Below, in pieces: positions 2,272-40,362 of a stretch of DNA of 64,000 nt. Every line of letters starts with the position of its first letter. The stretch's first letter is position 1. The translations under genes and the position numbers were made by a program. Under the pieces are notes generated by a model. The model had not been told where the DNA came from and did no database searches. It worked only from the letters and a program-made list of their open reading frames with translations. Source of the DNA: Thermoanaerobaculia bacterium (lineage in GTDB: Bacteria; Acidobacteriota; Thermoanaerobaculia; Multivoradales; JAGPDF01); contig CAVQJN010000001.1 of the NCBI GenBank assembly GCA_963712855.1, positions 742,747 through 806,746 of the forward strand, written 5' to 3'.

Positions 2272-3988
2272 GTGCCACGCCAGGATCCCGGCGGCGCGTC
2301 CGCGCAGCTCGACTCGGCGGACCTGCGCCGACCGCGCGCCGGGCTCGAGCGCCGGCTCCGCTGGCTGATCGCCATCCGTCTGGTGGTGATCACGAGCTTC
2401 GTCTTTCCCTATCTGCTTTCCCAGCTCGCCAGCCCGACCGAACTGCCAACCTTCGATTTCCTCTTCCTGATCGCCGGCTTCACCTACGTCGTCAGCCTCG
2501 TCTACATCGCGTTGTTGCGCATCCTGCGCGGCCGCCTCGTTCAGCAGGCCTTCATCCAATTCTCCGGCGATCTGATCGTCGTCACCGGCCTCGTCTACTA
2601 CTTCGGCGGCATCGGCAGCCCCTTCTCGCTCTTCTACCTCGTCGTCATCATGGTGGCATCGACGATGTTGAGAAGGCGTTCGGGTCTCCTCGTCGCGACG
2701 GCGGCCTTCGTCCTCTACGCGAGTCTCATCATCGGCCTCGCCTACCACTACGTTCCCCCGGCCGGACCCAGCCTCTCGGCGGCCGAGATCGCCTGGCGCC
2801 TTCCCTACAACCTCGGCATCCACCTGTTCGGCTTCTATGCCGTCGCGTTCCTGACCTCGATCATCGCCGAGAACATGCGTCGGGCCGAGGAGGAGCTGGC
2901 GGAGAAGCGGGACAGCCTGGCGAACCTCGAGGCTTTCCACCACGACGTCGTGCAATCGATCTCCACGGGTCTCGTGACGAGCGACCTCGGGGGGCGGATC
3001 ACCTCGCTGAACCGCGCGGCGATCGAGATCCTGCGGCGCGGCGACGACGAGCTTCTGGGAGAGCCGCTCACGCGGATCGGCCTCTTCTCCACGGAGGAAT
3101 GGACTCAACTCGCGGCGCACGCCACCGAGATGGGCCGTACGTTGCGCACCGAAGCGGAGATCGATTGCGGCGGCGAAATCGTGCCCATCGGCTTCAACCT
3201 CTCGAGTCTCACCGACGCGAGTGGCGTTCCCACGGGCCACATCCTCCTCTTTCAAGATCTCTCGCAGTGGCGCCAGCTCGAACAGGAGCTGCGTCTCAAG
3301 GACCGCATGGCCGCGGTCGGCGAGCTCGCCGCCGGCCTCGCCCATGAAGTCGGCAACCCGCTGGCGGCGATCTCCGGTTCGGTGCAGCTGCTCTCGCAGA
3401 GCCCGGACTCGGACTCCTCTCAACACAAGCTGCTCGAGATCATTCTGCGTGAGAGCCAACGCCTCGACCGCACGATCAAGGGATTCCTGCGGTTCGCCAG
3501 GCCGCGCGAGCGCGCGACGGCCGCGTTCGACATCGCGGCGCTGTTGCGCGAGAACACCGAGCTGTTGCGCAATTCCGACGAGGCCACCCTACGTCACCGT
3601 TTCTCGCTCGACCTCGAGCCTCCTACCGCCCAGTTGGTCGGGGACCGCGACCAGATCAGCCAGATCTTCTGGAATCTGGCACGCAACGCCTTGCGCGCCA
3701 TGCCGGAAGGCGGTGACGCTCCTGATCCGCGGTCGCCTGGCGGACGCCGCGTACAGGGTCGAGTTTCGCGACACAGGACACGGCATGACCGCAGAGCAGC
3801 GCGCGCGACTCTTCCAGCCGTTTCGCTCCTTCTTCGATTCCGGAACCGGCATCGGCATGGCGATCGTCTACCGCATCGTCCAGGAACACGACGGTCGGCT
3901 CGACGTCGAGAGTGGCCCGGGAAGCGGCACCCGGATCGTGGTCGAGCTACCGTTGGGAAGACCGGCCGGCGTGGTGGCGGGAGCCTGA
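2272..3988 (+). CDS. pilS: PilS-like membrane sensor histidine kinase (frameshifted near 3715-3725 in this assembly)
   Basis: N-terminal multi-TM region, a PAS-like region, an H-box HEVGNPLAAISGSVQLL in the frame of ORF 2272, and a HATPase_c domain (EFRDTGHGM, DSGTGIGMAIV) in the frame of ORF 3221. The two frames join around 3715-3725 (...NALRAMPEGG / TLLIRGRLAD...). Located immediately upstream of the sigma54 regulator. Confidence 0.7.
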
Positions 3989-3991
3989 TCC

Positions 3992-5383
<1,392 letters not shown>

Positions 5384-6765: not shown

Positions 6766-7986
6766 GTGATAAACGGCTTGCTCATGTTGAGCCCCGAACG
6801 AGCATGGGAAGCCATCGAGGAGCTCCTCCAGCCCCTCTCCTCCGCCCCACTGGCGATTCGCGAGGCCCGCGCAAGCCGTCTCGCGTCCCCCATCGTCGCC
6901 ACGACCGAAGTGCCACCTTTCGACGCGGCCGCGCTCGACGGCTACGCATACTCCGGCGAGCGCTCGCCGGGCTCGATCCTGACCGTGGCGGGCGTGATCG
7001 CCGCCGGCGCCGCGCCCGGCCAACGGCTCGCCGCGGGAGAAGCGGTCCGGATCTTCACCGGAGCCCCGGTGCCCGAGGGCGCGGATCGAGTCGTCGGCGT
7101 GGAGAACACCGACGAACCGGCCCCCGGGACCTTCCGCCTGCTCGTACCTGCGGGCGCGGGGGCGGCGATCCGGCGACGCGCCGAGGTGATCGACGTGGGG
7201 CAGCCGCTTCTGGCGCCCGGCGACCGCCTGAGCTCCGCGGCGCTCGCGCTCCTCGCCAGTCAGGGGATCGACCGCATCGACGTGGTGCGTCGGCCCCGGG
7301 TCGCGGTTCTGGCCACCGGAGACGAGGTCGTGCCCGCTTCCGCCGTGCCCCGGCCAGGTCAGCTGCGCGACTCCCACACCGACTACCTCATGGCCGAGGG
7401 AATTCGGCTCGGCGCCGAGGTCGTGTCGCTCGACATCGCCGACGACGACCCTGAAGCGCTCGCGGAGCGAACCCGCGAGGGCCTTCGGACCTGTGACGTG
7501 CTACTGGTTTGCGGCGGCGTCTCGATGGGGGGCCGCGACCATACCCGGCAAGTTCTCGAGCAGCTCGGCGCCCGCACGGTCTTCCACGGCGTGGCGGTTC
7601 AACCCGGCAAGCCGCTTCTCTTCGCCCACCTTCCGGAGCGCTGGATCTTCGGCCTGCCCGGTAATCCGGCCTCGGTGATGGTGGCTTTTCGTCTCTTCGT
7701 CGAACCTGCTCTGGCGAGACTGGCCGGCGACGCCCGAGCCCGCTTTTGGGGAGACGCCAGGCCCGCCCTCCTGGCCGGCGGGCTGCCGGCCGGCAAGAGC
7801 CGCGACCGATTCGTTCCCGCGCGATTCCGCGAGTCGACCGCCGCCGGGGAGCTCCTCGAACCGCTCGCGGTGCGCGGCTCCCACGACCTGGCCACCTTCG
7901 CGCGCGCGGATCGCCTCTTGCGAATTCGCGCCGGCGAAGCGGCGCGGCCGGCCGGCGACGCGGTGGAAGCGCTGGATTGGACCTGA
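6766..7986 (+). CDS. moeA: Molybdopterin molybdenumtransferase MoeA
   Basis: 406 aa with the MoeA signature (AALDGYA..., GGVSMGGRD, GLPGNPASVMV). Confidence 0.85.
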   Translation: MINGLLMLSPERAWEAIEELLQPLSSAPLAIREARASRLASPIVATTEVPPFDAAALDGYAYSGERSPGSILTVAGVIAAGAAPGQRLAAGEAVRIFTGAPVPEGADRVVGVENTDEPAPGTFRLLVPAGAGAAIRRRAEVIDVGQPLLAPGDRLSSAALALLASQGIDRIDVVRRPRVAVLATGDEVVPASAVPRPGQLRDSHTDYLMAEGIRLGAEVVSLDIADDDPEALAERTREGLRTCDVLLVCGGVSMGGRDHTRQVLEQLGARTVFHGVAVQPGKPLLFAHLPERWIFGLPGNPASVMVAFRLFVEPALARLAGDARARFWGDARPALLAGGLPAGKSRDRFVPARFRESTAAGELLEPLAVRGSHDLATFARADRLLRIRAGEAARPAGDAVEALDWT

Positions 7987-8023
7987 GCCGCTTTCCCGGG
8001 CGCCCCGTCGTCTGAGCGAGAGT

Positions 8024-8123
8024 TGGCGGAAGCGCATGGGAATCGAACCCACCTCCGCCGCCCCTACGGGCACCGGACGACGGTTTTGAAGACCGTGGGA
8101 GGCACCAGCCCCCGCGCGCTTCC
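8024..8123 (-). tRNA. selC: tRNA-Sec (selenocysteine, anticodon UCA)
   Basis: Reverse complement reads GGAAGCGC-G-GGGGGC/TGGT/GCCTCC-C-ACGGT/CTTCAAA/ACCGT-long variable arm-GTGGG/TTCGATT/CCCAT-GCGCTTCC-G-CCA. This gives an 8-bp acceptor stem, 6-bp D stem, UCA anticodon in a 7-nt loop, long extra arm and encoded CCA. It closely parallels E. coli selC (GGAAGAUCG...CUUCAAA...GGUUCGA.UCC...CUUCCGCCA). Confidence 0.8.
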
Positions 8124-8168
8124 GTCGACGATCATAGCGAGGCGCCCATCCCGGCGGCGCGGTCGCGC

Positions 8169-8903
8169 TCAGGTCACCCGCGACAACATGCGCTCGGAGC
8201 CGATCACGCGGCTGTAGACGACGCCCACCCGGTACCAGTGCAGGAGAAACCCCTCGCGACCCGCCCGCAGCCACCAGGTGAGCGTTCCCGGTCGCGGCGG
8301 CGCGGCGAGAGCGGGTGAGCAGACGACGTCGAGCGCCAGCCCGCGGGCGAGCGCCCGCGCGCGGCCGATGTGGAGCGGATCGGAGACCAGGATGAGCGTC
8401 CGCAGCCCCTCCCGCCCCAGGGCCTCGCGAACGAAGAAGAGATTCTCCAGGGTGTGACGACTCCGGTCCTCGGTCCAGATCGCCTCGGCCGGAAGGCCTC
8501 GATCGATCAGCAGATCCCGGCCCGCGCTCGCCTCGCTCCGGCTCGCTGTGCCGGTCATCCCCCCCGACACGATCACCCGGGGGGCCCAACCGTCGCGCCA
8601 GAGGCTCGCCCCGTGCTCGAGACGCGCCCGATAGACCGGGCTCAGAGCATCGTCTCGCAGCTCTCTGCCGAGAATCAGCAGGGCGTCCGACCTCCGCAGC
8701 GGTTCACCGCTCGCCAGGCGCAGGATCTTTCGAGCCTGCCAGGCCACCGGCAGCCCGAGGCCAGCGACGCCGGTCGCGAAGGCGAGGAGAAGCGTGCTCA
8801 GGCCGCCCGGGCCGAGCTCCTCGAGAAAGGTCGAATTGCGACGCCGCGCGCCCGGCCCGGCGGCCTCCTTCCGTCGACGACCCGCGGCCGGCGTCCCGCT
8901 CAT
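8169..8903 (-). CDS. DUF218 (YdcF/ElyC-like) domain protein
   Basis: Core LLILGRELRDD...RVIVSGGMTG...HTLENLFFVREAL matches DUF218. Start assumed at the internal Met (MSGTPAAG). Confidence 0.55.
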   Translation of the reverse strand: MSGTPAAGRRRKEAAGPGARRRNSTFLEELGPGGLSTLLLAFATGVAGLGLPVAWQARKILRLASGEPLRRSDALLILGRELRDDALSPVYRARLEHGASLWRDGWAPRVIVSGGMTGTASRSEASAGRDLLIDRGLPAEAIWTEDRSRHTLENLFFVREALGREGLRTLILVSDPLHIGRARALARGLALDVVCSPALAAPPRPGTLTWWLRAGREGFLLHWYRVGVVYSRVIGSERMLSRVT

Positions 8904-9415
8904 GGGTGGAGCTTTCCGCCACGGTCCCGGTGGATCGAATGCGCTCGTGGCTCCCAACCGAATCGCGCGAGGTCGATCCGGCCGCCGGGCCCGAAGACGA
9001 CGCCCTCTTCCAGGAGCAAGAGCCGCTGCCGCGGCGCTCCGTCGAAGTCGCGTCGCGCGCTGATCTCACCTCGTGCGTTGACCACCCTCTGCCAAGGAAC
9101 GGACGTTCCCGCCGGCAGCGCGGCGAGCGCGTAGCCGACCTGGCGCGCCGCCCCCGGAAAACCCGCCAGGGCGGCCACCTGGCCGTAGGTGGCGACGCGG
9201 CCTCTCGGAATCGTCCGCACCACGGTCCAGATGCGACGCCAGCGCGACTCGTCGGACCCCGGCCGCCTCACCGCATCGGCTTCCGGCTTCGACTTCGGCG
9301 AGATCGATTGGACAGGAGAGGGCACGGCGGCCACCGTCGCGAGACCGGGCGATCCTGAGCCGGAGAGCCATGAACTGAGCGCCCCATCTCGAAGGCCCAC
9401 ACGGGCGCTCAGCAT
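8900..9415 (-). CDS. Alkyltransferase-like protein (ATL; MGMT-family DNA-binding domain lacking the active-site Cys)
   Basis: TIPRGRVATYGQVAALAGFPGAARQVGYALA...VPWQRVVNARGEIS: a Methyltransf_1N/DNA_binding_1 fold with PWQRV in place of the catalytic PCHRV. Start taken at Met 9415, since the upstream part of the long ORF is low-complexity. Confidence 0.6.
   Translation of the reverse strand: MLSARVGLRDGALSSWLSGSGSPGLATVAAVPSPVQSISPKSKPEADAVRRPGSDESRWRRIWTVVRTIPRGRVATYGQVAALAGFPGAARQVGYALAALPAGTSVPWQRVVNARGEISARRDFDGAPRQRLLLLEEGVVFGPGGRIDLARFGWEPRAHSIHRDRGGKLHP
9090..9255. repeat. Direct repeat partner (~165 bp) of 12795-12960, internal to the ATL gene
   Basis: Same >140-nt string in both places (…cgcgagcgcgtagccgacctggcgcgccgcccccggaaaacccgccagggcggccacctggccgtaggtggcgacgcggcctctcggaatcgtccgcaccacg…). 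Confidence 0.8.
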
Positions 9416-9624
9416 ATCGACTCCAGCGTCGAATCCCTTCACGCCGGACCCTCGCGTCGAGACGAGAGTGAAGAAGCTCGTGAGGAGGAGAAGAGAGTCA
9501 AGCCGAGGCCCGACTCCACGAGTTCTCGAAAGGGAGAGCGGAGTGGCCACCCAGAGAAATCGTGGACAGTAGACGTGCGCTCCGCTGAAACCTTTCGCGC
9601 CCGAATACGTTCTACAATGTAGAA

Positions 9625-12279
9625 ATGACGCCGATGCTAGCTCCCCCGCCCAGCCTCCCCGAACGGCTCCTGCTGGCCCTGATGCCGCCGGCCGAGCGCG
9701 ACGAAGTGCTGGCCGACCTGCGCGCCGAGCGCGCAACGCGCGCCGCACGCGACGGGGCGGGCGCGGCGCGGCGATGGATGTGGAAGCAGGTGGCGGCGTC
9801 GCTGCCGGCGCTCCTCGGGCGGAGCGTCTGGCGCGGCCGCACCGGATTCGAATCTCGAGCCAACCGCGCCCGACCGGGAGGGAACGCCTTGGAGAGCTGG
9901 ATCCTCGACTTCCGCTACACCTTGCGCCGGCTGCGCCGCCGGCCGCTCTATGCGACGCTGGCGGTGGCGACGCTGGCGCTCGGAGTCGGCGGCGCCGCCG
10001 CCATCGCCGGTCTGGTCCGCGGCGTGCTGCTCGAGCCGCTCCCCTACGCCCACGAGGAACGCCTCGGGATCTTCACCTGGGTCTACGACTGGTCGGAGAG
10101 CGAGATGCTCTACCTGCGACCCGACTTCCCGGGATTCCAGGACGTCGCCGCCTACGCGCCGCTCGACGTCACCCTCCATCGCGAGGGGTCCCCCGCCCAG
10201 CTCGTGCCGGGGATCCAGGCCTCGGCCGAGCTCTTCGACGTGCTGGGGAGCCGGCCGCTGCTCGGCCGCGGCTTCCAGAAAGGCGACGACGTTCGCGGTG
10301 CGGAACGCGTCGCGGTGCTGAGCTATGGCCTCTGGCAGCAACTCGGCGGCGACCCGGCGCTGGTCGGGCAGCGGCTGCGGCTCGGCGGCAGAGAGCGGAC
10401 CGTCATCGGCGTCATGCCGCGTGGCTTCTGGTTCCCGTCGCCCGATGTGCGCGTCTGGGTGCCGAGCCGGCTCGATCCCGACAACGGCTCAGGCGACTAC
10501 GCGCTCGTCGGCCGGTTGGCGTCCGGCGTCTCGTTCAGCGCGCTGCCCTCCTATATGAAGCGGCTCTCCGCGCGCCTCGCCGGCCGCTTCCACTATCCGG
10601 CGGACTGGGACAAGACGAAGGATCTGCGGCTGACGCCGATCCGCGACGCGCTCGTCGGACCGCTGCGCCCCGCGCTCTGGGCGACGCTGGCGGCAATGGC
10701 GATGATCCTGCTGATCGCCTGCGCCAACGTCGCCGCGCTCACCCTGGGCCAGCTCGAGGGACGCACAACCGAGCTCGCGGCACGGCTCGCTCTCGGCGCC
10801 GAGCAGCGACGGCTGGTGCAGCAACTTGTCGCCGAGGCGATCGTCCTCGGCGGCGCCGCGGCAGCGGTCGGCGCAGCGCTCGCGGCGGCCGGATTCCGGC
10901 TGCTGGTCGCCGCGCTGCCGCTCGGCGCCTGGGCCGAGCAGGCGCGCCTCGACGGCTCGGTCTTCGCCGCAGCGCTCGTCGCGGCGCTCGTCGCCGGTTT
11001 GCTCCTGGCTCTGCTCCCGACGATGTCGCTGGCACGGCGCGACCTGCGCGGCGCGCTGGCGATGACGCGTACCCGCGGGGTCGCTGGGCGGGGTGGGCGG
11101 CTCGAGAGCGGTCTCGTCGTCGCCGAGGTCGCCCTCGCCGTGCTGCTCACCGCCGGGGCGGCGCTGGTCGCGCACAGCGTCTCGAACCTCTACGCGGTCG
11201 ATCCCGGCTTCGAGACCCGCGGCCTGGCGGTGGTCGATCTGGTGCTTCCCGCTGGCAGCACGCTCGGCGAGCGGCAGCGGACGGTCCACGAGATGGTCGA
11301 CGGGCTGGCGGCGCTGCCGGGGGTGACGCGCGTCGCGGCGAGCCAGAAGCTGCCGCTGCGAGGTCCGGGATCCAGCGCCGGGATCGCGGTTGTCGGGCGC
11401 GCCGGCGACGCAGACACCACGACCTATTTCCGCTTCGTCACGCCGGGCTATTTCGAAGCGCTGCGCCTTCCGCTGGTGGCGGGGCGCACCTTCACGAGCG
11501 CCGACCGTGCCCTCGTTCCGTCCGGCGACGGGAGCGAGATTCCCGTGGTCGTCAACCAGGCGCTCGCCTCCGAGTACTTCAGGGGCGAGAGCCCCCTCGG
11601 CCGCGTCCTCACCGGCGGCATCGGCGTCCACGAGCGCATCGTCGGCGTGGTCGGCAATATCGCCGAGGCGCGGCTGTCGGATCCCCCGGTGCCGGCGCGC
11701 TACTGGCTCACCGACCAGGCACCCTTCGGGCTCGATGCCATGTCGTTCGTGCTGCGCGCCGCGCCCGGGCTCGACCCCGTCTCGCTGCTCGAGCCGGCCC
11801 GGGCGACGGTCGAACGGCTGGCGCCGGCGGCGGCGGTGCGCGAGACGACGACCATGGAAAGGGTGCTCGACCAGGCGGTCGGACCGGCCCGCCAGGTGAT
11901 GCGGCTGCTGGCCATCCTCACCGGGCTCGCGGTCCTGCTGGGCGCGGTCGGCGTCTACGGCGTCCTCGCCCACTTCGTCGCCCGCCGCCAGCGCGACTGG
12001 GCGATCCGCATGGCGCTCGGCTTCTCGCCGTCGCACGTCGTCGGCTACGTCGTGCGGCGCGGCGTCGCCCTGGTGCTCGCCGGCATCGCGATCGGTGGCG
12101 GCCTGGCGCTGGCGCTCTCGCGGCTGCTGCGCTCGCTGCTCTTCCACGTCGGCGCCGCCGATCCGGTGGCGCTCGCCGTGGCGGGAGCGACACTGCTCGT
12201 GGTCGGCATCGTCGCCGCACTCGTGCCGGCCTGGCGGGCGAGTCGCACCCACCCGGCACTATTGCTCAGGGAGGTTTAG
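9625..12279 (+). CDS. ADOP-family ABC transporter permease (MacB-like periplasmic core plus duplicated FtsX domains)
   Basis: 884 aa with the characteristic ADOP N-terminal leader, two MacB_PCD-like periplasmic regions and two four-TM FtsX-like modules (…LGFSPSHVVGYVVRRG…). Confidence 0.8.
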   Translation: MTPMLAPPPSLPERLLLALMPPAERDEVLADLRAERATRAARDGAGAARRWMWKQVAASLPALLGRSVWRGRTGFESRANRARPGGNALESWILDFRYTLRRLRRRPLYATLAVATLALGVGGAAAIAGLVRGVLLEPLPYAHEERLGIFTWVYDWSESEMLYLRPDFPGFQDVAAYAPLDVTLHREGSPAQLVPGIQASAELFDVLGSRPLLGRGFQKGDDVRGAERVAVLSYGLWQQLGGDPALVGQRLRLGGRERTVIGVMPRGFWFPSPDVRVWVPSRLDPDNGSGDYALVGRLASGVSFSALPSYMKRLSARLAGRFHYPADWDKTKDLRLTPIRDALVGPLRPALWATLAAMAMILLIACANVAALTLGQLEGRTTELAARLALGAEQRRLVQQLVAEAIVLGGAAAAVGAALAAAGFRLLVAALPLGAWAEQARLDGSVFAAALVAALVAGLLLALLPTMSLARRDLRGALAMTRTRGVAGRGGRLESGLVVAEVALAVLLTAGAALVAHSVSNLYAVDPGFETRGLAVVDLVLPAGSTLGERQRTVHEMVDGLAALPGVTRVAASQKLPLRGPGSSAGIAVVGRAGDADTTTYFRFVTPGYFEALRLPLVAGRTFTSADRALVPSGDGSEIPVVVNQALASEYFRGESPLGRVLTGGIGVHERIVGVVGNIAEARLSDPPVPARYWLTDQAPFGLDAMSFVLRAAPGLDPVSLLEPARATVERLAPAAAVRETTTMERVLDQAVGPARQVMRLLAILTGLAVLLGAVGVYGVLAHFVARRQRDWAIRMALGFSPSHVVGYVVRRGVALVLAGIAIGGGLALALSRLLRSLLFHVGAADPVALAVAGATLLVVGIVAALVPAWRASRTHPALLLREV

Positions 12280-12609: not shown

Positions 12610-12794
12610 CTGCCGCGCCCAGCCGCCGGCGCCGAGGGGCCCCAGCGAGACGTTGGGGACGAGGTCGACGGTGAAGAGGGTGATGATGTTGGCCGAGAGA
12701 TCGCGGCGCTTTGCGCTAGAGGCCGGTTTTCCGGGGAAGGTGATCTCTATTTGCTTGCAAGGAGCAAAGCGGCCCGCTAGTTGGCGGGCCGTAA

Positions 12795-12960
12795 ACGACC
12801 GCCCCCGCCGGCAGCACCGCGAGCGCGTAGCCGACCTGGCGCGCCGCCCCCGGAAAACCCGCCAGGGCGGCCACCTGGCCGTAGGTGGCGACGCGGCCTC
12901 TCGGAATCGTCCGCACCACGCTCCAAATGACGCGCCAGCGCGAAGCTTCCGATCCAGGCG
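12795..12960 (-). pseudogene. Duplicated 5' fragment of the ATL gene (remnant)
   Basis: About 165 bp nearly identical to 9090-9255. It encodes ...RVIWSVVRTIPRGRVATYGQVAALAGFPGAARQVGYALA and then diverges, with no intact ORF context. Confidence 0.55.
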
Positions 12961-13117: not shown

Positions 13118-15568
13118 GTGACTGCTCGCCTCCGGTCGGCCGTGCATTTTGCATCTGTTCGCCATGTTGTCGCACTCTTGGTTGCTGCAGCCTTCTGCGT
13201 GGTGCTCACTCCGCGGCCGCTCCGCGGACAGGATGGCCTGCCGCCCGGAACTCCGCCTGACATCCAGAAGATCATCGAGAAGGCGAAGAGCGGCCAAGTG
13301 CCGACGCCGCAAGAGACCCAGCGGCTCATGGAGTGGGAGAAGCAGCTGGCGCAGAAGATGGGGGACCCGTCGCGCTCGGCCCCTCCGGGCAAAGTCGACA
13401 CCCAGTATGCGCCCGCCTCGATCGCTCGCGACGGCATCCCCTGCCGCCTGGAAGCGACGATCCACTACACGTTGCAGGCACCCGACGCCGACACGGTGAC
13501 GGGCCAGGCGAGCGCGTGGGCCGACGGGATGATGTACGCGACGATCGATGGCACCGACGACTACGTCAATTCCTCGGCCGATCCCTCCTCGCACGTTTCG
13601 ATCATCCGGATCGAGCCCCTCGCCAAGAACGGGAAGGCCGTGCTCGGCGGCGGCGGCAGCTACACGATCGAATCGGCCCACGACCGCATCTCGGCGACCG
13701 TGAAGCGGGCGGTCGGGGGAACGGTGCTGGTCAGCAGCGGGCACGGCGACGCGCTCATGGACGTGACAGGCCCGGAGATGTTCGGCGTCGAGGCCGAGGG
13801 CACGGAGTGCGGTTCCCAGGGTTGTCAGCCTTACAAGCACGACACCAACGGTGACTTTCTGGACGTCGCCTTCCCCTTCGCGATGGAGAAGCACCTCGAG
13901 GACGAGAACCAGACGGGCATCGGCAAGCCGATGCCTCAGCCCCCGCTCGCCATCTCGCTCGACCGCCTGAAGGCCGCCATCCAGGCCGGCGGATCGCAGT
14001 CGGTGAGCGGTTCGGAGAACTTCTCCTGGAAGACCGAGTACGAGACGGTCAACGGCAACAGCACCCTGAAGATCACGCTACGGCCCTCGCCCCTCCGGCT
14101 TCTGATCGACGAGCCCCTCGAGTATCCGGAGTGGTCGCCGGTGCCGTCATCCGACGACCCGGCGATCACGCAGCTCTTCGGCAAGGGATCCCGCCTGACC
14201 TTCCACGTCCGGCTGGTCACGAAAGACGGCAAGGAATCGGTGGTCGACCAGCCGATCGACTTCTACCTCGACGAGGTCAGCCACCACAAGGGCATCTGCT
14301 CCAACTATCCGAAGAGGAACGCGGACGACAAGCCGGATCTCCGGTTCACGTCGCCGGACGACGGGGTCTTCAACCAGGCGATCGAGATCGACCCGAAGGA
14401 TCCGAACCACGCCTACCTCAAGGCGCCCGCGACCGAGGCCGACGTCACCATCGAGGCGACCGACACCGGCGCCTACGGCAAGTTCCGCGCCGAGGCGAAG
14501 ACCCTTGGCCTCCTGAGCCTGGACGAGCGCACGGGCGAGAACTTCGTGCGTATCCCGATGGACGACGACAAGAACCACATCGCCGACGGATGGGCGAAGC
14601 GGCGCGGGGTCATGAACCTGCCGCCGACCTGGGACGAGGACGCGGTGCCCGCCGAGATGCCGCGCAAGGGCGACAGCCTGACGCTCTACGAGGAGTATCG
14701 CGGATTCGTCGTCGCGGATCCCCTGACTCAAGAGCCGCACTGGACGCGCCTGGAGACCCAGCGGCGCAAGACGTTCGTCTACCCGAAGAACGGCCACGAG
14801 GACTGGATTCGGGAGGGAGCGCGTCTGTTCGAGACGGTGACCGGCATCCGGGTCTACTTCGTGCCCGGAGACGACTACGTGAAGCCCGATCCGGCGCTCG
14901 ACAACAACCTGAACTGGATCAATTTCAACTCCGACCTCGACGACGGCATCGACTTCGGCCCCAAGGTCGACATCATCCCGATCGTCAACACGCCCGGCTA
15001 CATCTCCGACGATCCCAAGAATCCCGGGGTGCACGTCAACGGCCGCACGATGGCCGCGGGCGACAAGTACGGCAAGGAAGTTCCCGACGGTCCGTGGCAG
15101 CTCGACGAGATCCAGATCTTCCCGCAGAAGATCACCGCCAGCATGAACGACGAGGAGAAGCTCTACAGCGACCTGGCGGCGGGACACGGGACGGCGCCGC
15201 ACACGAAGGTGAACCTGGGCTATTACGGCGCCACCTTCCACGATGTCGCGACCGACATCCAGAAGGACTTCGCCGACATGGTGCACGATCTCTACGTCTT
15301 CAGCACGATGCACGAGATGGGTCACGCGCTGGGCGCGCATCACCACGACGAGGACCACCCGGAGATCGGCCCGCTCACCTGCCCGATGACCTACTGGTCC
15401 GGAAGGCGCGCGAACCTGCCCTTCTTCCTCGTCCTGTTCCATCCCAGCCGGACGGCGTGGTCCCTTCCCCCCGCCCCCGGCTCGACCGACAGCACTCCCG
15501 GTCCCGGCAGCGCCGCTCCCTGGAAGTTCTGCGCCGCGAGCTGGCAGCAGATGAAGCTGAAGCCGTAG
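13118..15568 (+). CDS. Secreted metzincin-like zinc metalloprotease (HExxHxxGxxH)
   Basis: 816 aa with N-terminal signal peptide (VVALLVAAAFCVVLTPRPLRGQ) and a C-terminal region carrying HEMGHALGAHHHDEDHPEIGPLTCPMTYW, which fits the metzincin HExxHxxGxxH motif. The preceding ~600 aa have no recognised fold. Confidence 0.7.
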   Translation: MTARLRSAVHFASVRHVVALLVAAAFCVVLTPRPLRGQDGLPPGTPPDIQKIIEKAKSGQVPTPQETQRLMEWEKQLAQKMGDPSRSAPPGKVDTQYAPASIARDGIPCRLEATIHYTLQAPDADTVTGQASAWADGMMYATIDGTDDYVNSSADPSSHVSIIRIEPLAKNGKAVLGGGGSYTIESAHDRISATVKRAVGGTVLVSSGHGDALMDVTGPEMFGVEAEGTECGSQGCQPYKHDTNGDFLDVAFPFAMEKHLEDENQTGIGKPMPQPPLAISLDRLKAAIQAGGSQSVSGSENFSWKTEYETVNGNSTLKITLRPSPLRLLIDEPLEYPEWSPVPSSDDPAITQLFGKGSRLTFHVRLVTKDGKESVVDQPIDFYLDEVSHHKGICSNYPKRNADDKPDLRFTSPDDGVFNQAIEIDPKDPNHAYLKAPATEADVTIEATDTGAYGKFRAEAKTLGLLSLDERTGENFVRIPMDDDKNHIADGWAKRRGVMNLPPTWDEDAVPAEMPRKGDSLTLYEEYRGFVVADPLTQEPHWTRLETQRRKTFVYPKNGHEDWIREGARLFETVTGIRVYFVPGDDYVKPDPALDNNLNWINFNSDLDDGIDFGPKVDIIPIVNTPGYISDDPKNPGVHVNGRTMAAGDKYGKEVPDGPWQLDEIQIFPQKITASMNDEEKLYSDLAAGHGTAPHTKVNLGYYGATFHDVATDIQKDFADMVHDLYVFSTMHEMGHALGAHHHDEDHPEIGPLTCPMTYWSGRRANLPFFLVLFHPSRTAWSLPPAPGSTDSTPGPGSAAPWKFCAASWQQMKLKP

Positions 15569-15647: not shown

Positions 15648-15953
15648 TCCGCTAGAGGCGAAAGGGTGCCAGGCGAATAGCTAGCTGGTCCCGGAGACAA
15701 ACCCCTCTTCGACCAGCTTCGCGGACGGCTTCGACGCCGGCGACGCGTGCAACTGGGAGACCCGGGTGCCCAATACGCCCTGCGCTAGCGAAAGGGTGCC
15801 AGGCGAATAGCAGGCGAAAGGGTGCCAGGCGAATAGCTAGCTGGTCCCGGAGACAAACCCCTCTTCGACCAACTTCGCGGACGGCTTCGACGCCGGCGAC
15901 GCGTGCAACTGGGAGACCCGGGTGCCCAATACGCCCGGAGTGAAAGGGTGCCA
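15648..15953. repeat. REP-like tandem repeat array (24-bp GCGAAAGGGTGCCAGGCGAATAGC motif x4, separated by two ~100-bp identical units)
   Basis: Motif at 15648, 15779, 15805 and 15930. The ~100-bp unit (tagctggtcccggagacaaac...gggtgcccaatacgccc) occurs at 15671-15770 and 15827-15926. The motif equals one terminal inverted repeat of the Y1-transposase element. Confidence 0.8.
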
Positions 15954-16140
15954 GGCGAATAGCTAGCCAAGCCCTTTGGGCATGGACGAATTCTCTCCTC
16001 TTGGGGGACCCACGTTGATCTCGTCCGTCTCGCGCAACGAGGCACATCGATCTCTAGGTACGGCCAAGGCGCCGAGAGACTCCTGACGGTCTCGAGAGCT
16101 CAACCTCGAAAGATCACACCCGCGCCCTTCCTGGGCCGCG
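15940..16140. repeat. 3'-end remnant (~200 bp) of a Y1-transposase element; second copy at 20980-21180
   Basis: Near-identical to 20980-21180, which is the 3' terminal region of the intact element copy 1. It is cut at ...ctgggccgcga by the IS3 insertion. Confidence 0.75.
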
Positions 16141-16205
16141 ATGACCTGCTCCCCGCAACTCGGCCCAGTGGGGAATGACACACTGGCCCGCGGAAGGGGT
16201 GAGCG

Positions 16206-16472
16206 ATGCGGAAGAGTCGGTACTCCGAGGAGCAGATCATTCGGGTGCTCCAGGAGGTCGAATCGGGCAAGACGGTTCGTGAGGTTTGCCGGGAGCATGG
16301 GATCGCGACCGGGACCTACTACGCCTGGAAGTCGAAGTTCGGCGGCATGGACGTCAACGAGGCGCGACGGCTCAAAGAGCTCGAGCTCGAGAATCGGCGT
16401 CTGAAGGCGGCGGTGGCGGACCTGACGCTCCGGGAGCAGGCACTGAAGGACGTGCTGTCAAGAAAATGGTGA
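16206..16472 (+). CDS. IS3-family transposase OrfA (HTH)
   Basis: 88 aa MRKSRYSEEQIIRVLQEVESGKTVREVCREHGI..YYAWKSKFGGMDVNEARRLKELE, typical IS3 OrfA with a leucine zipper. Confidence 0.85.
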   Translation: MRKSRYSEEQIIRVLQEVESGKTVREVCREHGIATGTYYAWKSKFGGMDVNEARRLKELELENRRLKAAVADLTLREQALKDVLSRKW

Positions 16473-17353
16473 CGCCCGCGGCCCGGCGTGCGGCGGTCCA
16501 TCTTCTCCGGGAGCGACACCAGCTGAGCGAGCGGAGTGCGTGTCGACTGATGAGCTACAGCCGCTCGTCGTACCGCCGCAAGAGTCTTCGCGCCGAGGCG
16601 GACAAGCCCCTGAGAGATCGCCTTCTGGCGCTTGCGTCGGAACGACCTCGCTACGGCTACCGCCGGTTGCACGTTTTCCTCGAGCGGGAGGGCTGGAGCA
16701 TCAACCGCAAGCGGGTCTACCGCGTGTATCGGGAGCTGGGCTTGGCCGTGCGGCGAAAGAAGCGCAAGCGCGTGGCTCAGGCGAATCGACAGCCCCGGGT
16801 CGTGCCGATCGCTCGTGACATTCAATGGTCGCTCGACTTCATGCGCGACACGCTGGCCAACGGCCGAGTCTTCCGCACGCTGAATGTCGTCGACGACGCC
16901 ACTCGGGAGTGCTTGGCGATCGAAGTCGACACCTCGCTCTCCGGTTATCGAGTCGGTCGCGTGCTGGACGCCGTAGCCCGCGAGCGAGGTCGCTACCCGA
17001 GCCGGATCGTCTTGGACAATGGCCCCGAGTGCACGAGCAAGGCGCTCGACCAGTGGGCCTACGATCACGGTGTCACGCTCGCCTTCATCCGCCCCGGGAA
17101 ACCGGTCGAGAACTGCTTCGTCGAGAGCTTCAACGGGAAGTTCCGCGACGAATGCCTCAACCTGCATTGGTTCCTCAGCCTGGCCGATGCGCGGCGCCGC
17201 ATCGAGGCTTGGCGCTTGGATTTCAACTTCGTCCGACCACACAGTAGCTTCGACGGCCGGCCCCCCGCCGTGGCGGCGCGCGAGGCGTGGCTCCACCCGG
17301 CTACGCCGGCTTCCGCCACGCCTCGACCAGGGGCTAGGTACCAGGGAAAATGA
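16466..17353 (+). CDS. IS3-family transposase OrfB (DDE integrase core), expressed by -1 frameshift from orfA
   Basis: rve domain: ...WSLDFMRDTL...RTLNVVDDATRECLAIEVD...DNGPECTSKAL...PGKPVENCFVESFNGKFRDECLN (D, D, E triad). Frame is -1 relative to orfA; the putative slippery region AAGAAAATGG lies near 16455-16470. Confidence 0.8.
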   Translation: MVTPAARRAAVHLLRERHQLSERSACRLMSYSRSSYRRKSLRAEADKPLRDRLLALASERPRYGYRRLHVFLEREGWSINRKRVYRVYRELGLAVRRKKRKRVAQANRQPRVVPIARDIQWSLDFMRDTLANGRVFRTLNVVDDATRECLAIEVDTSLSGYRVGRVLDAVARERGRYPSRIVLDNGPECTSKALDQWAYDHGVTLAFIRPGKPVENCFVESFNGKFRDECLNLHWFLSLADARRRIEAWRLDFNFVRPHSSFDGRPPAVAAREAWLHPATPASATPRPGARYQGK

Positions 17354-17400
17354 ATCGCGAGTGTCCAGTTGGTGGTGGTGTCAACCTGGGGAGCAGGTCA

Positions 17401-17470
17401 GGCCCACGACATTCTCAATAGACGGAATCCAACGCCCAGATTCCTCGCTATTCGGGTGGCACCTTTGTCG
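17401..17470. repeat. 5'-end remnant of the Y1-transposase element (tnp start plus terminal IR), abutting the IS3
   Basis: ggcccacgacattctcaatagacggaatccaacgcccagattcctcgctattcgggtggcacctttgtc is a diverged copy of 22140-22210 and 23070-23140 (tnp start codon region plus terminal repeat). Confidence 0.65.
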
Positions 17471-17694
17471 GGAGGTTACGCCATCCTCAAAATTCCACGG
17501 GATTCGGGACGGAACCTCCTCCCGAAGACACGCAGCTGCTTTCTGAGAGCAGAAGGAATGGAGAACATCATCAATCTATGTCACGAAGACATCCGAACGA
17601 GCAGGACGAGCACGGTCTTGGGTATTGCGGGTGTGCTCTCCATCTGCTCCGATCCATTGCTTGGAGTCCTCCGAACTCATACGTTGGTTAAGTC

Positions 17695-19602
17695 CTATTG
17701 CGAAGGAACCTTGATTCGCTCAACGGCCCAGTCTCCGCTCAGTAAGTCTTTGGCACCCACAGCCACATAGCCTCCCGCCAGCGGCATAGGAATCTCAATA
17801 TCTCGAACAAATAGAGGTCGCATCGCACTCCCCGCAGGTAGTGAGAGCTCGATGGTTTGCCCTCGTACCTGGGAGATGTCGCCATTCTTTGGAAGCAGCG
17901 CGATTTCTATGCGCAGCCGGCCAAGGAGGGTGTCTTTACTGGGCGACACGAGCGTGATCGCGGCCCGTTCGAAGCTTACGCGGACAGTCACTCGATCCTT
18001 GTTGCGATTGACTATAGATACCGACTCTCCGAGGCCGGGTCGACTCTTCTCGATGAAAAGAGAGGCTCGAACTCGCTGGGCTAAGAGTTGGTCATCGGGA
18101 GAGTCGCGCCAGCTTCTTCGGTAGAAGAGTCGGACACCCTTTCGAGTTGTCTCAAGTCGAAGTCTGTGGATGCGTGCATCGCCAAAATGGCGAGATTGAA
18201 AAGCTAGCAGGTATTCGCTCTGAAGGGACTCGTTGAGACCTCTGAGTGCAGGAATGAAGCTGTTGCGGTTGATGATGGCATGACCACCAGTCTCCTCTGC
18301 GAGGAAAGTGAACGGATCATTGAGATCAGCGCGAGTGCGGAATGCACCTTCAACTGTTTCGTTCCGTCCCTGGCTACTGGCGTCCGCGCCGGACGCGCTG
18401 AGTCCGTTGGCATCAAGTGTCCACACCGTTACGCCGTCAGAGTTTGCGGAGGCCGTTACCGCGTCGAGCATCGATGTGAGTTGAAGTCGTGCCTCATCCA
18501 GAGCGACAGCGTGCACATCGAGTCTGTCGGCAGAGGTGCGAGCGTTGTCTTCGGGCGGGACGGAGTACGGCACTCCTTGAAGGACACCGCTACCGTCGCA
18601 GAGAGCCCGGATGTATTCGTAAGCAGCGCGACCGGGATGCAGTGGGAATCCTTCGCTTACATAGAGTAACAGTCGGCGCCCGGGAAGGAGTGTCATGGAC
18701 GCGGCAAATGCCTGAAGTGCCTGAAGGGAGGCGATTGCATCTTCCCTTTGCTGACTGGCCAGGCCCTGCGCGATTTCGACCAAGCTACGGGGGCATGGAG
18801 TCTGAATCTTTGACTCAATAGCCTGACGTTGTTCTTGCATGATTAGGTCGAGAGCAGTCTGTTGCGCAGAGCGTCTGACCAATGCGGTGGTGCCGCCCAA
18901 TGCAATTTCTTCGAGTAGGTGGTCAACGTGAGAGCGATTCGTGCTGCGAGCTAGAAGAATCTGAAGAGAATGGTCGAACGACACCACCATCCACGCTGCG
19001 CGAGACGGTGGAAAGTCTCGCATCCACACGCGGAGCGCATCTATTACTAGTTGGCGCCGTCCAGGATCAAGGTAGGACATGTCGAGGAAGATCGCCACAG
19101 TAGGCGACGCGGTGCTCGTACCATGAGATTGGCTGCTAGAAGGCGGAGACGCAGAGGCAATCTCATCGCCGAGGTTCTCAGTGTGCCCGGCCGCCGGAGC
19201 TGTGAATCCATACAGCCCGCTGACAGGCTTTCCATCCTCGAAGAGCTGCAATTCTTCAGGACGAAGATCGTCTACCGGTCGTCCCTGTGAATCCTCCGCG
19301 AAGAGGTCGAGCTGGACTACATTTATGGTCACTTGGTCTGAGAACTGGGAGCTTGGCGTGAGACCTTGTGACGAGCCCGATGGCACGGCAAGAGCTGTCT
19401 GCGGAGGAATTGCGAGAAACGCGCCTATGACTATACGAATCCATCTAAACCCAAGTCTGTTTCGTATCGAGCCTGCTAGGTGAACAATGGCGACAAGGTG
19501 TGTGGCAATGCAGCCACCTTCTGGATGTCGCCGCAGGACGAGTGACGTCAGAGTAAGAGTGCATCGGCGCGCAGGAAATGCCTCCTGTCTCAGACTAGGC
19601 AC
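17695..19602 (-). CDS. Secreted VWA (von Willebrand factor A) domain protein
   Basis: Hydrophobic signal-like segment followed by a vWFA-like region (...VAIFLDMSYLD...GGTTAL...) and a C-terminal beta-rich region. Located in a lower-GC segment. The real start may be internal. Confidence 0.45.
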   Translation of the reverse strand: MPSLRQEAFPARRCTLTLTSLVLRRHPEGGCIATHLVAIVHLAGSIRNRLGFRWIRIVIGAFLAIPPQTALAVPSGSSQGLTPSSQFSDQVTINVVQLDLFAEDSQGRPVDDLRPEELQLFEDGKPVSGLYGFTAPAAGHTENLGDEIASASPPSSSQSHGTSTASPTVAIFLDMSYLDPGRRQLVIDALRVWMRDFPPSRAAWMVVSFDHSLQILLARSTNRSHVDHLLEEIALGGTTALVRRSAQQTALDLIMQEQRQAIESKIQTPCPRSLVEIAQGLASQQREDAIASLQALQAFAASMTLLPGRRLLLYVSEGFPLHPGRAAYEYIRALCDGSGVLQGVPYSVPPEDNARTSADRLDVHAVALDEARLQLTSMLDAVTASANSDGVTVWTLDANGLSASGADASSQGRNETVEGAFRTRADLNDPFTFLAEETGGHAIINRNSFIPALRGLNESLQSEYLLAFQSRHFGDARIHRLRLETTRKGVRLFYRRSWRDSPDDQLLAQRVRASLFIEKSRPGLGESVSIVNRNKDRVTVRVSFERAAITLVSPSKDTLLGRLRIEIALLPKNGDISQVRGQTIELSLPAGSAMRPLFVRDIEIPMPLAGGYVAVGAKDLLSGDWAVERIKVPSQ

Positions 19603-19951
19603 CGATACATACTACCTATGCATTCCTGCATTGAGCGACAATGAAAGCAACCTGTGCATCTTTCAGCCAAGAGCTGCTATTAGTCCTAGAGGAAAGCAAG
19701 CGTGCCGAGGCCAAAGATTGAAGGCCTCTAAAGAGGACTCGACGGCGTCTGTTGGTATCCATGGCTCGTCTGGGCCACGAGTACATGTCAGAGTCTTCAA
19801 CACCCGCGCACGACGAAGTGCGAAAAGCCGCGAGGGTCGTACTTGATAGAGGCGGAAACATGAGTCCTGACGGCTGCGGATCTGTCAAGACTGGCGCCAA
19901 ACGAAATTGAGGATGTGAGTACGGTCGCCAGCTAGACCGGAGGTATCGGTC

Positions 19952-20551
19952 TCATGGACAGACACACTCGCAATAGCAATTGATTAGGTCGATACAGTCA
20001 TTGAAGCAGCCTTGGCCCTTGCATGGAATGCAGCCTTGCCGGCAGATCGATAGCGTGCAGTCCGGCCCATCTTGCACCTGCGCATCGAAGTTCGACACGG
20101 GAGCTTGCGATGTATCGGACATGGCGAGTAGAGGCATGATGGAGCCCTGCTTGTCAGGGGAGCAGGCGGCTGCAGAAGTGGTAGGCGCCGTTTGCTGACT
20201 GGTTGGGTTGTCGAGCAAGAACGCCAGATTTGGCTGCGGTGGGCCAGAAGTCAAGGGCGTCATCGACGTTGAAGTATCGCTGGCGAGGCCGACAGAGGCA
20301 AAGACGAGCGCACTCGCGACTACGAAGCCGAGCGTCGCATGCTGTTTTATGGCAGGAGACTCCTCTAGACTAGGTTGATCTTGGACACTCTTCTGGAGAC
20401 GGGCCGCTGACATCCCCGTGAGAACAACTGCCCGCATGAGGTTGCCAGGGAATTGCGGCGCGACGATTCGTATCGGGCGGTCAGTGATCAGGGCAACCGG
20501 TCCGGGTATCCGATCTATCAGGTCAAGGAGGCTTGGCTGTGTGCAGCGCAA
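19952..20551 (-). CDS. Hypothetical protein with TM segment and Cys-rich C-terminus (10 Cys in the last 35 aa)
   Basis: ORF of 199 aa (likely start MRAVVLTG at 20437). Has a TM helix ATLGFVVASALVFASVGLA, a Ser/Thr/Pro-rich linker and a C-terminus CTLSICRQGCIPCKGQGCFNDCIDLINCYCECVCP. Low-GC context. Confidence 0.35.
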   Translation of the reverse strand: MRCTQPSLLDLIDRIPGPVALITDRPIRIVAPQFPGNLMRAVVLTGMSAARLQKSVQDQPSLEESPAIKQHATLGFVVASALVFASVGLASDTSTSMTPLTSGPPQPNLAFLLDNPTSQQTAPTTSAAACSPDKQGSIMPLLAMSDTSQAPVSNFDAQVQDGPDCTLSICRQGCIPCKGQGCFNDCIDLINCYCECVCP

Positions 20552-20743
20552 CGGTACGTCGTGTCGCGTGGGTTAGTTCGAATGCAGGGCGGCTCATAGG
20601 CATCGTCTCGACTGGAGAATACTCTTCTCTCGCGCTTCTGCAAGCTACTGACAGGTTCTGTCAGTGGGTGCCTCTTCGAGCATTCCGCTGAGCGATTTGT
20701 AGCGCAACAGGTTTCGAAAGAAGAGGTGGCCTGTGACCTGCTA

Positions 20744-20800
20744 CCCAGGTTGACACCACCACCAACTGGACACTCGCGATTCATTTTCCATGAGTCCCGG
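20744..20800 (-). mobile_element. Solo inverted copy of the IS3 terminal repeat (remnant)
   Basis: TGACCTGCTACCCAGGTTGACACCACCACCAACTGGACACTCGCGATTCATTTTCC is the reverse complement of IS3 right end 17345-17400 with one mismatch in the first 13 nt. Similarity decays after ~55 bp. Confidence 0.7.
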
Positions 20801-20974
20801 CCTCGGGTCGAGGTGCCGGAAGAGTGCCAGACGAATAGCGAATAGCAGTGGCTGCCTAGAGGGCGTGTGCCGGGCACCATCTGCAAACCATTACTGACCT
20901 TGGGCTTCTATGGAGGAGGAGCACGCCCATGCCTCTGTTCATGAGGCGAAGCAACCAAATTTGGTTCAGAGTAG

Positions 20975-22210
20975 CGAAAGGGTGCCAGGCGAATAGCTAG
21001 CCAAGCCCTTTCGGTATGGACGCATTCTCTCCTTTTGGGGGACCCACGTTGATCTCGTCCGTCTCGCGCAACGAGGCACATCGATCTCTAGGTACGGCCA
21101 AGGCGCCGAGAGACTCCTGACGGTCTCGAGAGCTCAACCTCGAAAGATCACACCCGCGCCCTTGCTGGGCCGCGACCCGCCTTGCTGCTGGCTCCGGACC
21201 TCTGTAGGCGAGCGAGTCTCTCTAGCTACGTCGCGGCCTGAACCCCGCGAAACGGCAAGGCCGGCGGGAAGCACCCTTGGGGAAATCCCACGTCGAGCTG
21301 ACCCGCGCGGAATCGCTCGGAGGAACGGCGGAAAGCCGCCAGGAAGGTCGCGTAGGCGTCGCGGACCTGCCTCCGAACCTGCCGCGAGTAGGCGTGGATC
21401 AGCGGAGCGGGCCCCTTCTTGATCCGGTTCGGCTCGAAGTGAGGATCCTGGCGCAGTACGAATGAACGGCCGGCAGCCGATCGCCCCGTCTCAGCCGCCT
21501 TCCGGGCGGTCTCCTGCTCGATGCCCTGGATCATCTCTGCGATTCGGCTCCGATACTGCTCGTCGTCGAGCCCGGCCCAACAGGGAATCGGGACGAGCTG
21601 GAGAGATTCCTCCTCGACCAGATCCCGCGGTTGGAGAGCGATCCCTTTGCGACTCGCCGTGTACTCGAGCGTATGGTTGATCCAACGACCGCGGACCGAC
21701 GATCCCGACAGGAGAAAGGGAGCCGCGTGGGCACCCGGCCATTCCTTGGGCGAGCGAACCAGGCCTTCCTTGGATCCGTGACCGAGGAGGTAATGCAAGC
21801 GTGCCACCTGGCTCGCTTCGTCGTCCGAGACGAGGATCGCCTGATACCTGCGTCCCCAGAACTTCTCGCGCCAGCGAATGAGCCGGCCCGCCTCACGGGC
21901 CAGATTCGAGTTGAGATAGCCCATGAAGGCGGCGAGGCGCTGTGCGTCGGGGACAGTGAGCAGAAGGTGGAAGTGATTGGAGAGAAAGGCGAAGGCATGA
22001 ACCCGCACCGGATAGAGGCGGGCTGCCCGTGCGAGAACGCCGAGCGTCAGGTCTCGGAGAATGGGGCTCGGCCGCAAGAGCAGACGCCCCTGAACCGTGC
22101 GACAGGTGACCTCGACGAGCGAGCCCGGCGGAACGAAGCGGATCCTTCGGCCCATGACACGCTCAACAGACGGAATCCAAGGCCCAGATTCCTCGCTAGT
22201 CGGGTGGCAC
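20975..22210 (-). mobile_element. Y1/HUH (IS200-like, COG1943/RAYT-like) transposase element, copy 1, with imperfect ~25-bp terminal inverted repeats
   Basis: Left terminus GCGAAAGGGTGCCAGGCGAATAGCTAGC versus right terminus (reverse complement) GAGAAAGGTGCCACCCGACTAGCG. It contains a single tnp gene, and the same termini recur as solo REP-like motifs. Confidence 0.65.
21226..22155 (-). CDS. Y1 HUH transposase (IS200/IS605-like TnpA domain with ~180-aa C-terminal extension)
   Basis: HUH motif SNHFHLLL, FMGYLNSNL, and catalytic-Tyr region KFWGRRYQAILV in the N-terminal ~130 aa. 309 aa in total. Confidence 0.7.
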   Translation of the reverse strand: MGRRIRFVPPGSLVEVTCRTVQGRLLLRPSPILRDLTLGVLARAARLYPVRVHAFAFLSNHFHLLLTVPDAQRLAAFMGYLNSNLAREAGRLIRWREKFWGRRYQAILVSDDEASQVARLHYLLGHGSKEGLVRSPKEWPGAHAAPFLLSGSSVRGRWINHTLEYTASRKGIALQPRDLVEEESLQLVPIPCWAGLDDEQYRSRIAEMIQGIEQETARKAAETGRSAAGRSFVLRQDPHFEPNRIKKGPAPLIHAYSRQVRRQVRDAYATFLAAFRRSSERFRAGQLDVGFPQGCFPPALPFRGVQAAT

Positions 22211-23066: not shown

Positions 23067-23141
23067 GACACGCTCAACAGACGGAATCCAAGGCCCAGAT
23101 TCCTCGCTAGTCGGGTGGCACCTTTCTCCGGTGGTGGTCAA
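22211..23141 (-). mobile_element. Y1 transposase element copy 2 (3'-truncated, tandem to copy 1)
   Basis: Contains the same 5' terminus (22... ggtggcacctttctc at 23127-23141) and tnp gene. Its 3' ~90 bp and terminal repeat are missing. Confidence 0.6.
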
Positions 23142-40338: not shown

Positions 40339-40362
40339 ACTCTGCTCGAGGGGCCTTCGCAG

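Follow-up and report, generated by a model that had tools for sequence, protein, structure and literature searches.

We found that nucleotides 8024..8123 of the 64-kb stretch of DNA analysed here (the window) are, with a probability of about 0.9, the organism's genuine selC, the gene for a bacterial-type (8+5) selenocysteine tRNA (tRNA-Sec) with the anticodon UCA. Two independent detectors concur on this identity. ARAGORN, run on the window, called tRNA-SeC with the anticodon tca on the minus strand, with precisely these end points, and Rfam 15, run at gathering thresholds, matched RF01852 (tRNA-Sec) at 8028..8123 of the same strand over model positions 1-91 of 91 (74.3 bits, E = 2.2e-13), 27 bits above the gathering score of 47 for this family. 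A permissive Rfam rescan left the call unchanged. On the minus strand, nucleotides 8024-8027 read GCCA, which corresponds to the discriminator G (8027) and an encoded CCA (8024-8026). The first-pass annotation had proposed selC at these coordinates and had named a covariance score below the tRNA-Sec threshold as grounds for giving the proposal up; the score lies well above that threshold, the identification and the coordinates stand, and the strand, which had been left unstated, is minus. The gene is a canonical selC, of a kind already known and readily picked up by standard tools. The only other tRNA gene called by ARAGORN in the window encodes tRNA-Ala(GGC) (51399..51474, minus strand).

Table 1. 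Features of the selC gene, its surroundings and the variable region of the window. Positions are those of the window unless marked "gene", which denotes numbering 1-100 from the mature 5' end of the tRNA.
Feature	Position	Strand	Basis or remark
tRNA-Sec gene (selC), 100 nt	8024..8123	-	ARAGORN, Rfam RF01852, base-by-base parse, covariation
Anticodon UCA (tRNA positions 35-37), loop CUUCAAA	8087..8089	-	ARAGORN and parse
Acceptor stem GGAAGCGC/GCGCUUCC	gene 1-8/89-96		8 standard pairs
Acceptor-D linker, G9 C10			2 nt
D stem GGGGGC/GCCUCC, loop UGGU	gene 11-16/21-26		6 pairs
C27			Between D stem and anticodon stem
Anticodon stem	gene 28-32/40-44		5 pairs; loop CUUCAAA
Extra arm	gene 45-70		4+5 bp around one G.G, loop GUAG
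Linker G71			Between extra arm and T stem
T arm GUGGG-UUCGAUU-CCCAU, contains GGTTCGATTCC	gene 72-76/84-88		5 pairs, the first G.U (G72.U88)
G97 and CCA			tRNA 3' end
-10-like hexamer TATGAT, candidate promoter	8131..8136	-	7 nt upstream of mature 5' end
Spurious 64-aa ORF, TTG start	8023..8217	+	Antisense to tRNA conserved as RNA
362-aa ORF overlapping the tRNA	7501..8589	-	GC1 0.83 > GC3 0.69
moeA (molybdopterin molybdotransferase)	6766..7986	+	Pfam MoeA_N, MoCF_biosynth, MoeA_C
DUF218 gene	8169..8957	-	Pfam DUF218
MGMT-like DNA_binding_1 gene	within 8900..9748	-	Pfam
rve integrase, IS-rich stretch	16286-17353		
Two IS200-like Y1 transposase genes, IS-rich stretch	21226-22155 and 22047-23141		
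IetA-like AAA ATPase	27479-28444	-	
WYL/HTH regulator	28943-29893	+	
C5 methylase (DrmMII/DruM-like)	38658-39917	+	
DrmB	40363-42189	-	248 bits
DrmA	42135-45419	-	698 bits
NERD+helicase gene	45416-47182	-	
DrmE_C-containing protein	47170-50421	-	

Parsing the sequence base by base gave a cloverleaf in which all 31 pairs are intact. It contains every element that had been described from the letters alone in the first-pass annotation, namely an 8-bp acceptor stem, a 6-bp D stem with a 4-nt loop, the UCA anticodon, a long variable arm and a T arm with its characteristic motif (Table 1). Acceptor and T stems form a helix of 8+5 = 13 bp, all 13 pairs of which are standard, with C8-G89 as the eighth acceptor pair. 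Bacterial tRNA-Sec has been described as having such an 8+5 (13 bp) helix, a 6-bp D stem with a 4-nt loop and an extra stem of 6-9 bp (Itoh et al. 2013, PMC3711452), and the 9-bp (4+5) extra stem of the window's tRNA lies inside this published range. The pair C15:G20a and the linker residue G48, both fully conserved in bacterial tRNA-Sec (PMC3711452), are present (C16:G21 and G71 in gene numbering), as are all loop residues for the D/T-loop contacts G18:U55, G19:C56 and U16:U59 of the bacterial molecules (PMC3711452). The sole deviation from the canon concerns 26:44, which is C.C in the window and C.U in most of the clade, so that the anticodon stem comprises 5 bp.

Homologues gave further evidence on this structure. 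Scanning metagenomes with the invariant 30-nt 3' end of the tRNA as query matched at least 120 public contigs, nearly all of them called tRNA-SeC(tca), and yielded 85 distinct full-length sequences. When these were threaded onto the 8/5 structure, 96.5% of cells were paired, versus 43-54% with the partners slid by 1-3 columns. Two-sided changes occurred at 16 pairs, and the observed covariation score was reached by none of 500 shuffles. The D stem was paired in 100% with two-sided changes at 5 of its 6 pairs, the anticodon stem in 99.8% with 4 of 5 pairs covarying, and the extra arm in 88% with all 7 tested pairs covarying. The search pattern itself fixes the T arm and the 3' acceptor strand throughout this set, so that the covariation support comes from the D, anticodon and extra arms only. 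RNAalifold on seven sequences recovered the 8/5 cloverleaf as well, with compensatory changes at four pairs (28:44, 29:43, 50:67 and 52:65); in the window, A28-U44 replaces the C-G of the closest relatives, a lineage-specific compensatory double change. That is, the helices are maintained by compensatory substitutions. C15:G20a was C:G and the CUUCAAA loop was invariant in 85 of 85 homologues, while G48 lies inside the search pattern, so that its constancy among these sequences carries no independent weight.

[quoted passage not shown] A G9.U88 pair is possible in the window sequence, and the RNAfold MFE structure uses this 9/4 form. Across the 85 sequences, the first linker position (9) is occupied by A in 26, T in 25, G in 17 and C in 17, and such near-equal use argues that a ninth acceptor pair is not selected. 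With position 9 unconstrained across homologues and G48 present, we rejected a eukaryal/archaeal-type 9+4 tRNA-Sec. Some variation within the set was also recorded. A sub-lineage of 21 of the 85 distinct sequences (L021, L023, L026, L030, L035, L043, L045, L055, L060 and others) begins with GGAAGCGG and has, at the eighth acceptor position, a non-standard G opposite G. An extra D-stem nucleotide was present in 29 of the 85 sequences, which only partly overlap with this sub-lineage.

Stable folding is usual in GC-rich DNA, and dinucleotide shuffles of the tRNA sequence themselves averaged -44.6 kcal/mol. It might thus be argued that there is no RNA gene at this site but a chance GC-rich fold, and that the 64-aa ORF (plus strand) or the 362-aa ORF (minus strand) is the real feature. 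We regard this as scarcely tenable. The cloverleaf was obtained from the single-sequence fold at -56.1 kcal/mol (z = -3.0 versus the shuffles), the Rfam E-value speaks against a chance fold, and the conservation is RNA-like: paired positions show two-sided substitutions, and codon periodicity is absent. The GC profile of the 362-aa ORF, with GC1 above GC3, is the one typical of a non-coding shadow frame of high-GC DNA. As for the 64-aa ORF (GC3 0.83), it crosses the tRNA in antisense and extends into the 3'-terminal part of DUF218, a gene encoded on the other strand; it had been dismissed as spurious beforehand, which agrees with its position antisense to a conserved tRNA gene, and the selC call removes it.

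With coding frames chosen by GC3 and named by Pfam, the gene order around the tRNA is pilT, pilC, pilS, pilR, a DUF4388/PatA_N gene (minus), moeA (plus), selC (minus), DUF218 (minus) and an MGMT-like gene (minus). moeA converges on selC, with its stop codon 37 nt from the tRNA 3' end, and the stop codon of the co-oriented DUF218 gene precedes the tRNA 5' end by 45 nt. Six relatives (L003, L004/L005, L006, L007 and L008) carry selC between moeA and DUF218 in matching position and orientation. Of these, L005 belongs to GCA_036397015.1, and L006 is contig_34402 of ERZ25039503, 3.82 Mb in length. Their common order is PatA_N, moeA, tRNA-Sec (minus), DUF218, MGMT, in some cases an acid phosphatase gene, tRNA-Ala(GGC) (minus), hflX and redoxin, followed further on by comF-like, CarboxypepD_reg, histidine kinase and sigma-54 activator genes; in L009, selC lies 8.5 kb from moeA. 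MoeA of the syntenic relatives is 54-58% identical to that of the window (L009: 50%; local tblastn), and the tRNAs are about 94% identical. Apart from an identical 400-aa protein (P0001), further BLASTP matches of MoeA were at most 61% identical, the named ones coming from Thermoanaerobaculia/Acidobacteria MAGs, and a scan of a genome collection with MoeA gave relatives 36-37% identical among the matches listed. The host is probably an uncultured Acidobacteriota belonging to, or standing close to, the class Thermoanaerobaculia. Given this synteny in relatives, the immediate flanks of selC are core, as the first-pass annotation had judged them to be.

Upstream of the tRNA, a TAnGAT element is found at a distance of 6-7 nt both in the window and in each of the five distinct relatives with conserved gene order (L003, L004, L006, L007 and L008), while the remaining upstream spacer is not alignable among them. 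The conserved element suggests a putative promoter of selC's own with a very short leader. A consensus scan of 7700-9200 gave no two-hexamer sigma-70 site, and no intrinsic terminator was found in the same interval; the 3' flank of selC is not conserved.

A molybdopterin gene accompanies selC in many contigs with this type of tRNA-Sec. moeA lies within the selC locus in L003-L009, L025, L027, L040, L059, L068 and L114, and L026 has a MoCF_biosynth (molybdopterin-biosynthesis) gene near selC (L026:4982-5467). The linkage is kept across lineages of this Acidobacteriota group with about 50-60% MoeA identity. It may be no more than shared gene order, or it may reflect a functional tie to Mo/W enzymes that contain Sec. 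If it were functional, Sec decoding would be coupled to Mo/W cofactor insertion, for example in a Sec-containing Mo/W formate dehydrogenase.

Genomic islands associated with selC are known in Enterobacteria, for example LEE and SHI-2. In the window, the 3' end of selC faces the syntenic core gene moeA, and no second copy of the 3' part of the tRNA was found at up to 3 mismatches; a selC-integrated island in the window was rejected, since the 3' end faces moeA and no direct repeat of the tRNA 3' part exists. Among metagenomic relatives, we observed truncated 3' copies of tRNA-Sec, reaching from the anticodon loop to CCA and preceded by unrelated DNA (L014, L018, L022, L024, L040, L044, L049, L054, L064, L089, L105 and L116). 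Three of these (L018, L022 and L040) also have an intact selC, followed 1.4-3.4 kb downstream by the truncated copy; in L022 and L040, genes for TIR-domain proteins, but none for an integrase, lie between the two copies. These second copies resemble the attachment sites of selC islands, whereas the window has no such copy. The truncated copies and the intervening DNA point to selC as an insertion site in the clade, though not in the window, and the inter-copy DNA may represent small defence-gene inserts at selC. We consider it improbable that either the selC-moeA linkage is functional or the 3' half of selC is the clade's target for very small integrase-less TIR-domain defence inserts; neither idea bears on anything unusual in the tRNA of the window.

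A larger variable region begins 1.6 kb from selC. About 42 kb (approximately 9.6-51.4 kb) separate the MGMT-like gene from tRNA-Ala(GGC) in the window, compared with 0-1.4 kb in six syntenic relatives. This region adjoins the 3' side of tRNA-Ala (51399) and not selC, and neither an attachment-type repeat nor an integrase was found. It contains a MacB/FtsX-PadR module, IS elements, giant PKD/CARDB repeat proteins, an IetA-like ATPase, a WYL regulator and DISARM, and shows patches of lower GC (0.556 at 18-20 kb and 0.564 at 30-32 kb). The DISARM-type anti-phage system occupies 38658..50421 (DrmA and DrmB scores in Table 1), and the IetA-like ATPase and the WYL/HTH regulator may be further defence-related genes. 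Repeats are frequent here. A 166-nt segment from the 5' region of MGMT is present in two copies (9098..9263 and 12794..12959, 90% identical) that flank the MacB/FtsX-PadR module, and a repeat of at least 300 nt (14239..14538 and 23133..23432, 98% identical) joins two unknown genes (13118-15568 and 23008-24462), with an IS-rich stretch in between (15650..23140). At 33100..37200, a unit of about 1080 nt is repeated in tandem three to four times, the copies being 76-100% identical, inside giant PKD/CARDB surface-protein ORFs (31229-35605 and 34905-38381) that overlap in different frames, possibly as the result of a frameshift or of misassembly in the repeats.

Two essential-looking genes are interrupted by a change of frame. 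In pilS (2272..4077), HATPase_c is read in the frame of 3221-3988 and HisKA in a different one. The RF1 gene (61401..62487; PQT and GGQ motifs) uses the frame of 61401 for its N-terminus and, from near 61585 onwards, that of 61477, with an apparent 1-nt indel at the switch. We rejected a prfB with programmed frameshift, as the PQT motif identifies the gene as RF1 and the switch is an apparent 1-nt indel. Most likely, the splits in pilS and RF1 are 1-nt assembly indels, and they are a caution on sequence quality.

A selC gene raises the question whether the organism uses selenocysteine. The first-pass annotation had taken it to imply an active selenoprotein system, which is a reasonable supposition, and we hold a working Sec system in it to be highly probable. 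Acidobacteria include selenoprotein users, although among bacteria the trait is scattered and has frequently been lost (PMC1794560). Searches for the remaining components gave the following picture. Pfam matched no SelA, SelB or SelD among the genes of the 64-kb window. In tblastn searches, E. coli SelA, SelB and SelD matched neither the window nor any of 129 loci (about 860 kb), with MoeA working as positive control; a weak SelB-like match in L026 was rejected as EF-G. An FdhF probe had no match in the window or in the approximately 860 kb of related loci, and a screen for in-frame TGA codons in the window and related loci returned only adjacent genes in the same frame, such as pilS/pilR, and no convincing UGA-interrupted gene. 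No SECIS family of Rfam matched at E <= 1, and a literature search gave no paper connecting Thermoanaerobaculia with selenocysteine. However, sel genes are commonly unlinked to selC, as they are in E. coli K-12, and 64 kb is a small fraction of a genome, so that their absence from the window says little and is weak negative evidence.

The absence of any gene for Sec machinery or a selenoprotein from the window and from the loci beside selC in relatives, together with the patchy distribution of the trait, would also fit an intact but orphaned selC, that is, a relic in a lineage that has lost selA, selB, selD and its selenoproteins and in which the tRNA has not yet decayed. This seems quite improbable to us. 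The window's copy retains all 31 pairs of the cloverleaf, the A28-U44 replacement is a compensatory double change specific to the lineage, the -10-like element persists upstream of selC, and the position of the gene is fixed across lineages with about 55% MoeA identity; the common separation of sel genes from selC weakens the absence from 64 kb itself. From the same observations, namely intact pairs, lineage-specific compensation, a conserved upstream element and a locus fixed across deep divergence, we infer, indirectly, that selenocysteine is probably used.

In a working system, the tRNA would be transcribed, probably from its own promoter (TATGAT) and possibly also by read-through from DUF218. 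RNase P would trim its 5' end, the CCA being genome-encoded. SerRS would then serylate it via the long extra arm and G73, and SelA would turn Ser into Sec with selenophosphate from SelD. The 8-bp acceptor stem, a known SelB determinant and EF-Tu rejection element (PMC7609411), would, as part of the 13-bp acceptor/T helix, lead to rejection by EF-Tu and binding by SelB, and the tRNA would be brought to in-frame UGA codons that have a SECIS hairpin downstream. The sequence determinants predicted to govern handling by SerRS, SelA, SelB and EF-Tu are present (long extra arm, G73 and 8-bp acceptor stem). selC thereby flags an uncultured Thermoanaerobaculia-like lineage as a probable selenocysteine user, and UGA-interrupted genes elsewhere in the genome (e.g. 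fdhA) should be annotated as selenoproteins and not as pseudogenes. For Sec biology as such the gene teaches nothing new, being a canonical selC whose 30-nt 3' end recurs in the metagenome contigs scanned here.

Molecules that look like tRNA-Sec but do not carry Sec exist, among them allo-tRNAs that have been reported in Acidobacteria, the same phylum (PMC5389517; PMC7609411). [quoted passage not shown] We judge this very unlikely. The acceptor/T branch of allo-tRNAs has 12 bp, arranged 8/4 or 9/3 (Mukai et al. 2017, PMC5389517), versus 8+5 = 13 bp of standard pairs in the window. The UCA-anticodon selC* tRNA-Cys of Desulfobacterales has an 8/4 arrangement with a bulge, A1:U72 and selB*/cysS* as neighbours (PMC5389517), whereas the window's tRNA has G1:C, no bulge and a discriminator G, and its neighbours by Pfam are moeA and DUF218 and not selB*/cysS*; E. 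coli SelB had no significant tblastn match in the window. C15:G20a and G48, specific to bacterial tRNA-Sec, and an Rfam tRNA-Sec score far above gathering also argue against a look-alike.

Compared with tRNA-Sec of the type found in E. coli (b3658) and Aquifex aeolicus, the latter known from its crystal structure (PMC3711452), the tRNA of the window has the same 8+5 helix, 2-nt linker and 6-bp D stem with 4-nt loop, and it shares with bacterial tRNA-Sec C15:G20a, G48, the CUUCAAA loop, a long extra arm, the discriminator G and the encoded CCA. BLASTN of the tRNA against E. coli genomes at default sensitivity gave no match, and selC of E. coli K-12 was taken by its annotated coordinates instead (L010:2223-2317). 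Aligned in this way, 61 of 100 columns are identical and the elements follow in the same order, which bears out the similarity to E. coli selC noted beforehand. Both tRNAs open the T stem with a G.U pair. With 100 nt versus 95 nt, the window's tRNA is the longer one because its extra arm is longer (4+5 bp with one G.G mismatch). The linker between acceptor and D stem reads GC in the window, UU in A. aeolicus and GU in E. coli, and 26:44 is paired in A. aeolicus and E. coli, giving a 6-bp anticodon stem, but unpaired in the window (5 bp). The surroundings differ as well: selC lies between moeA and DUF218 in the window, and between yicJ and setC in E. coli.
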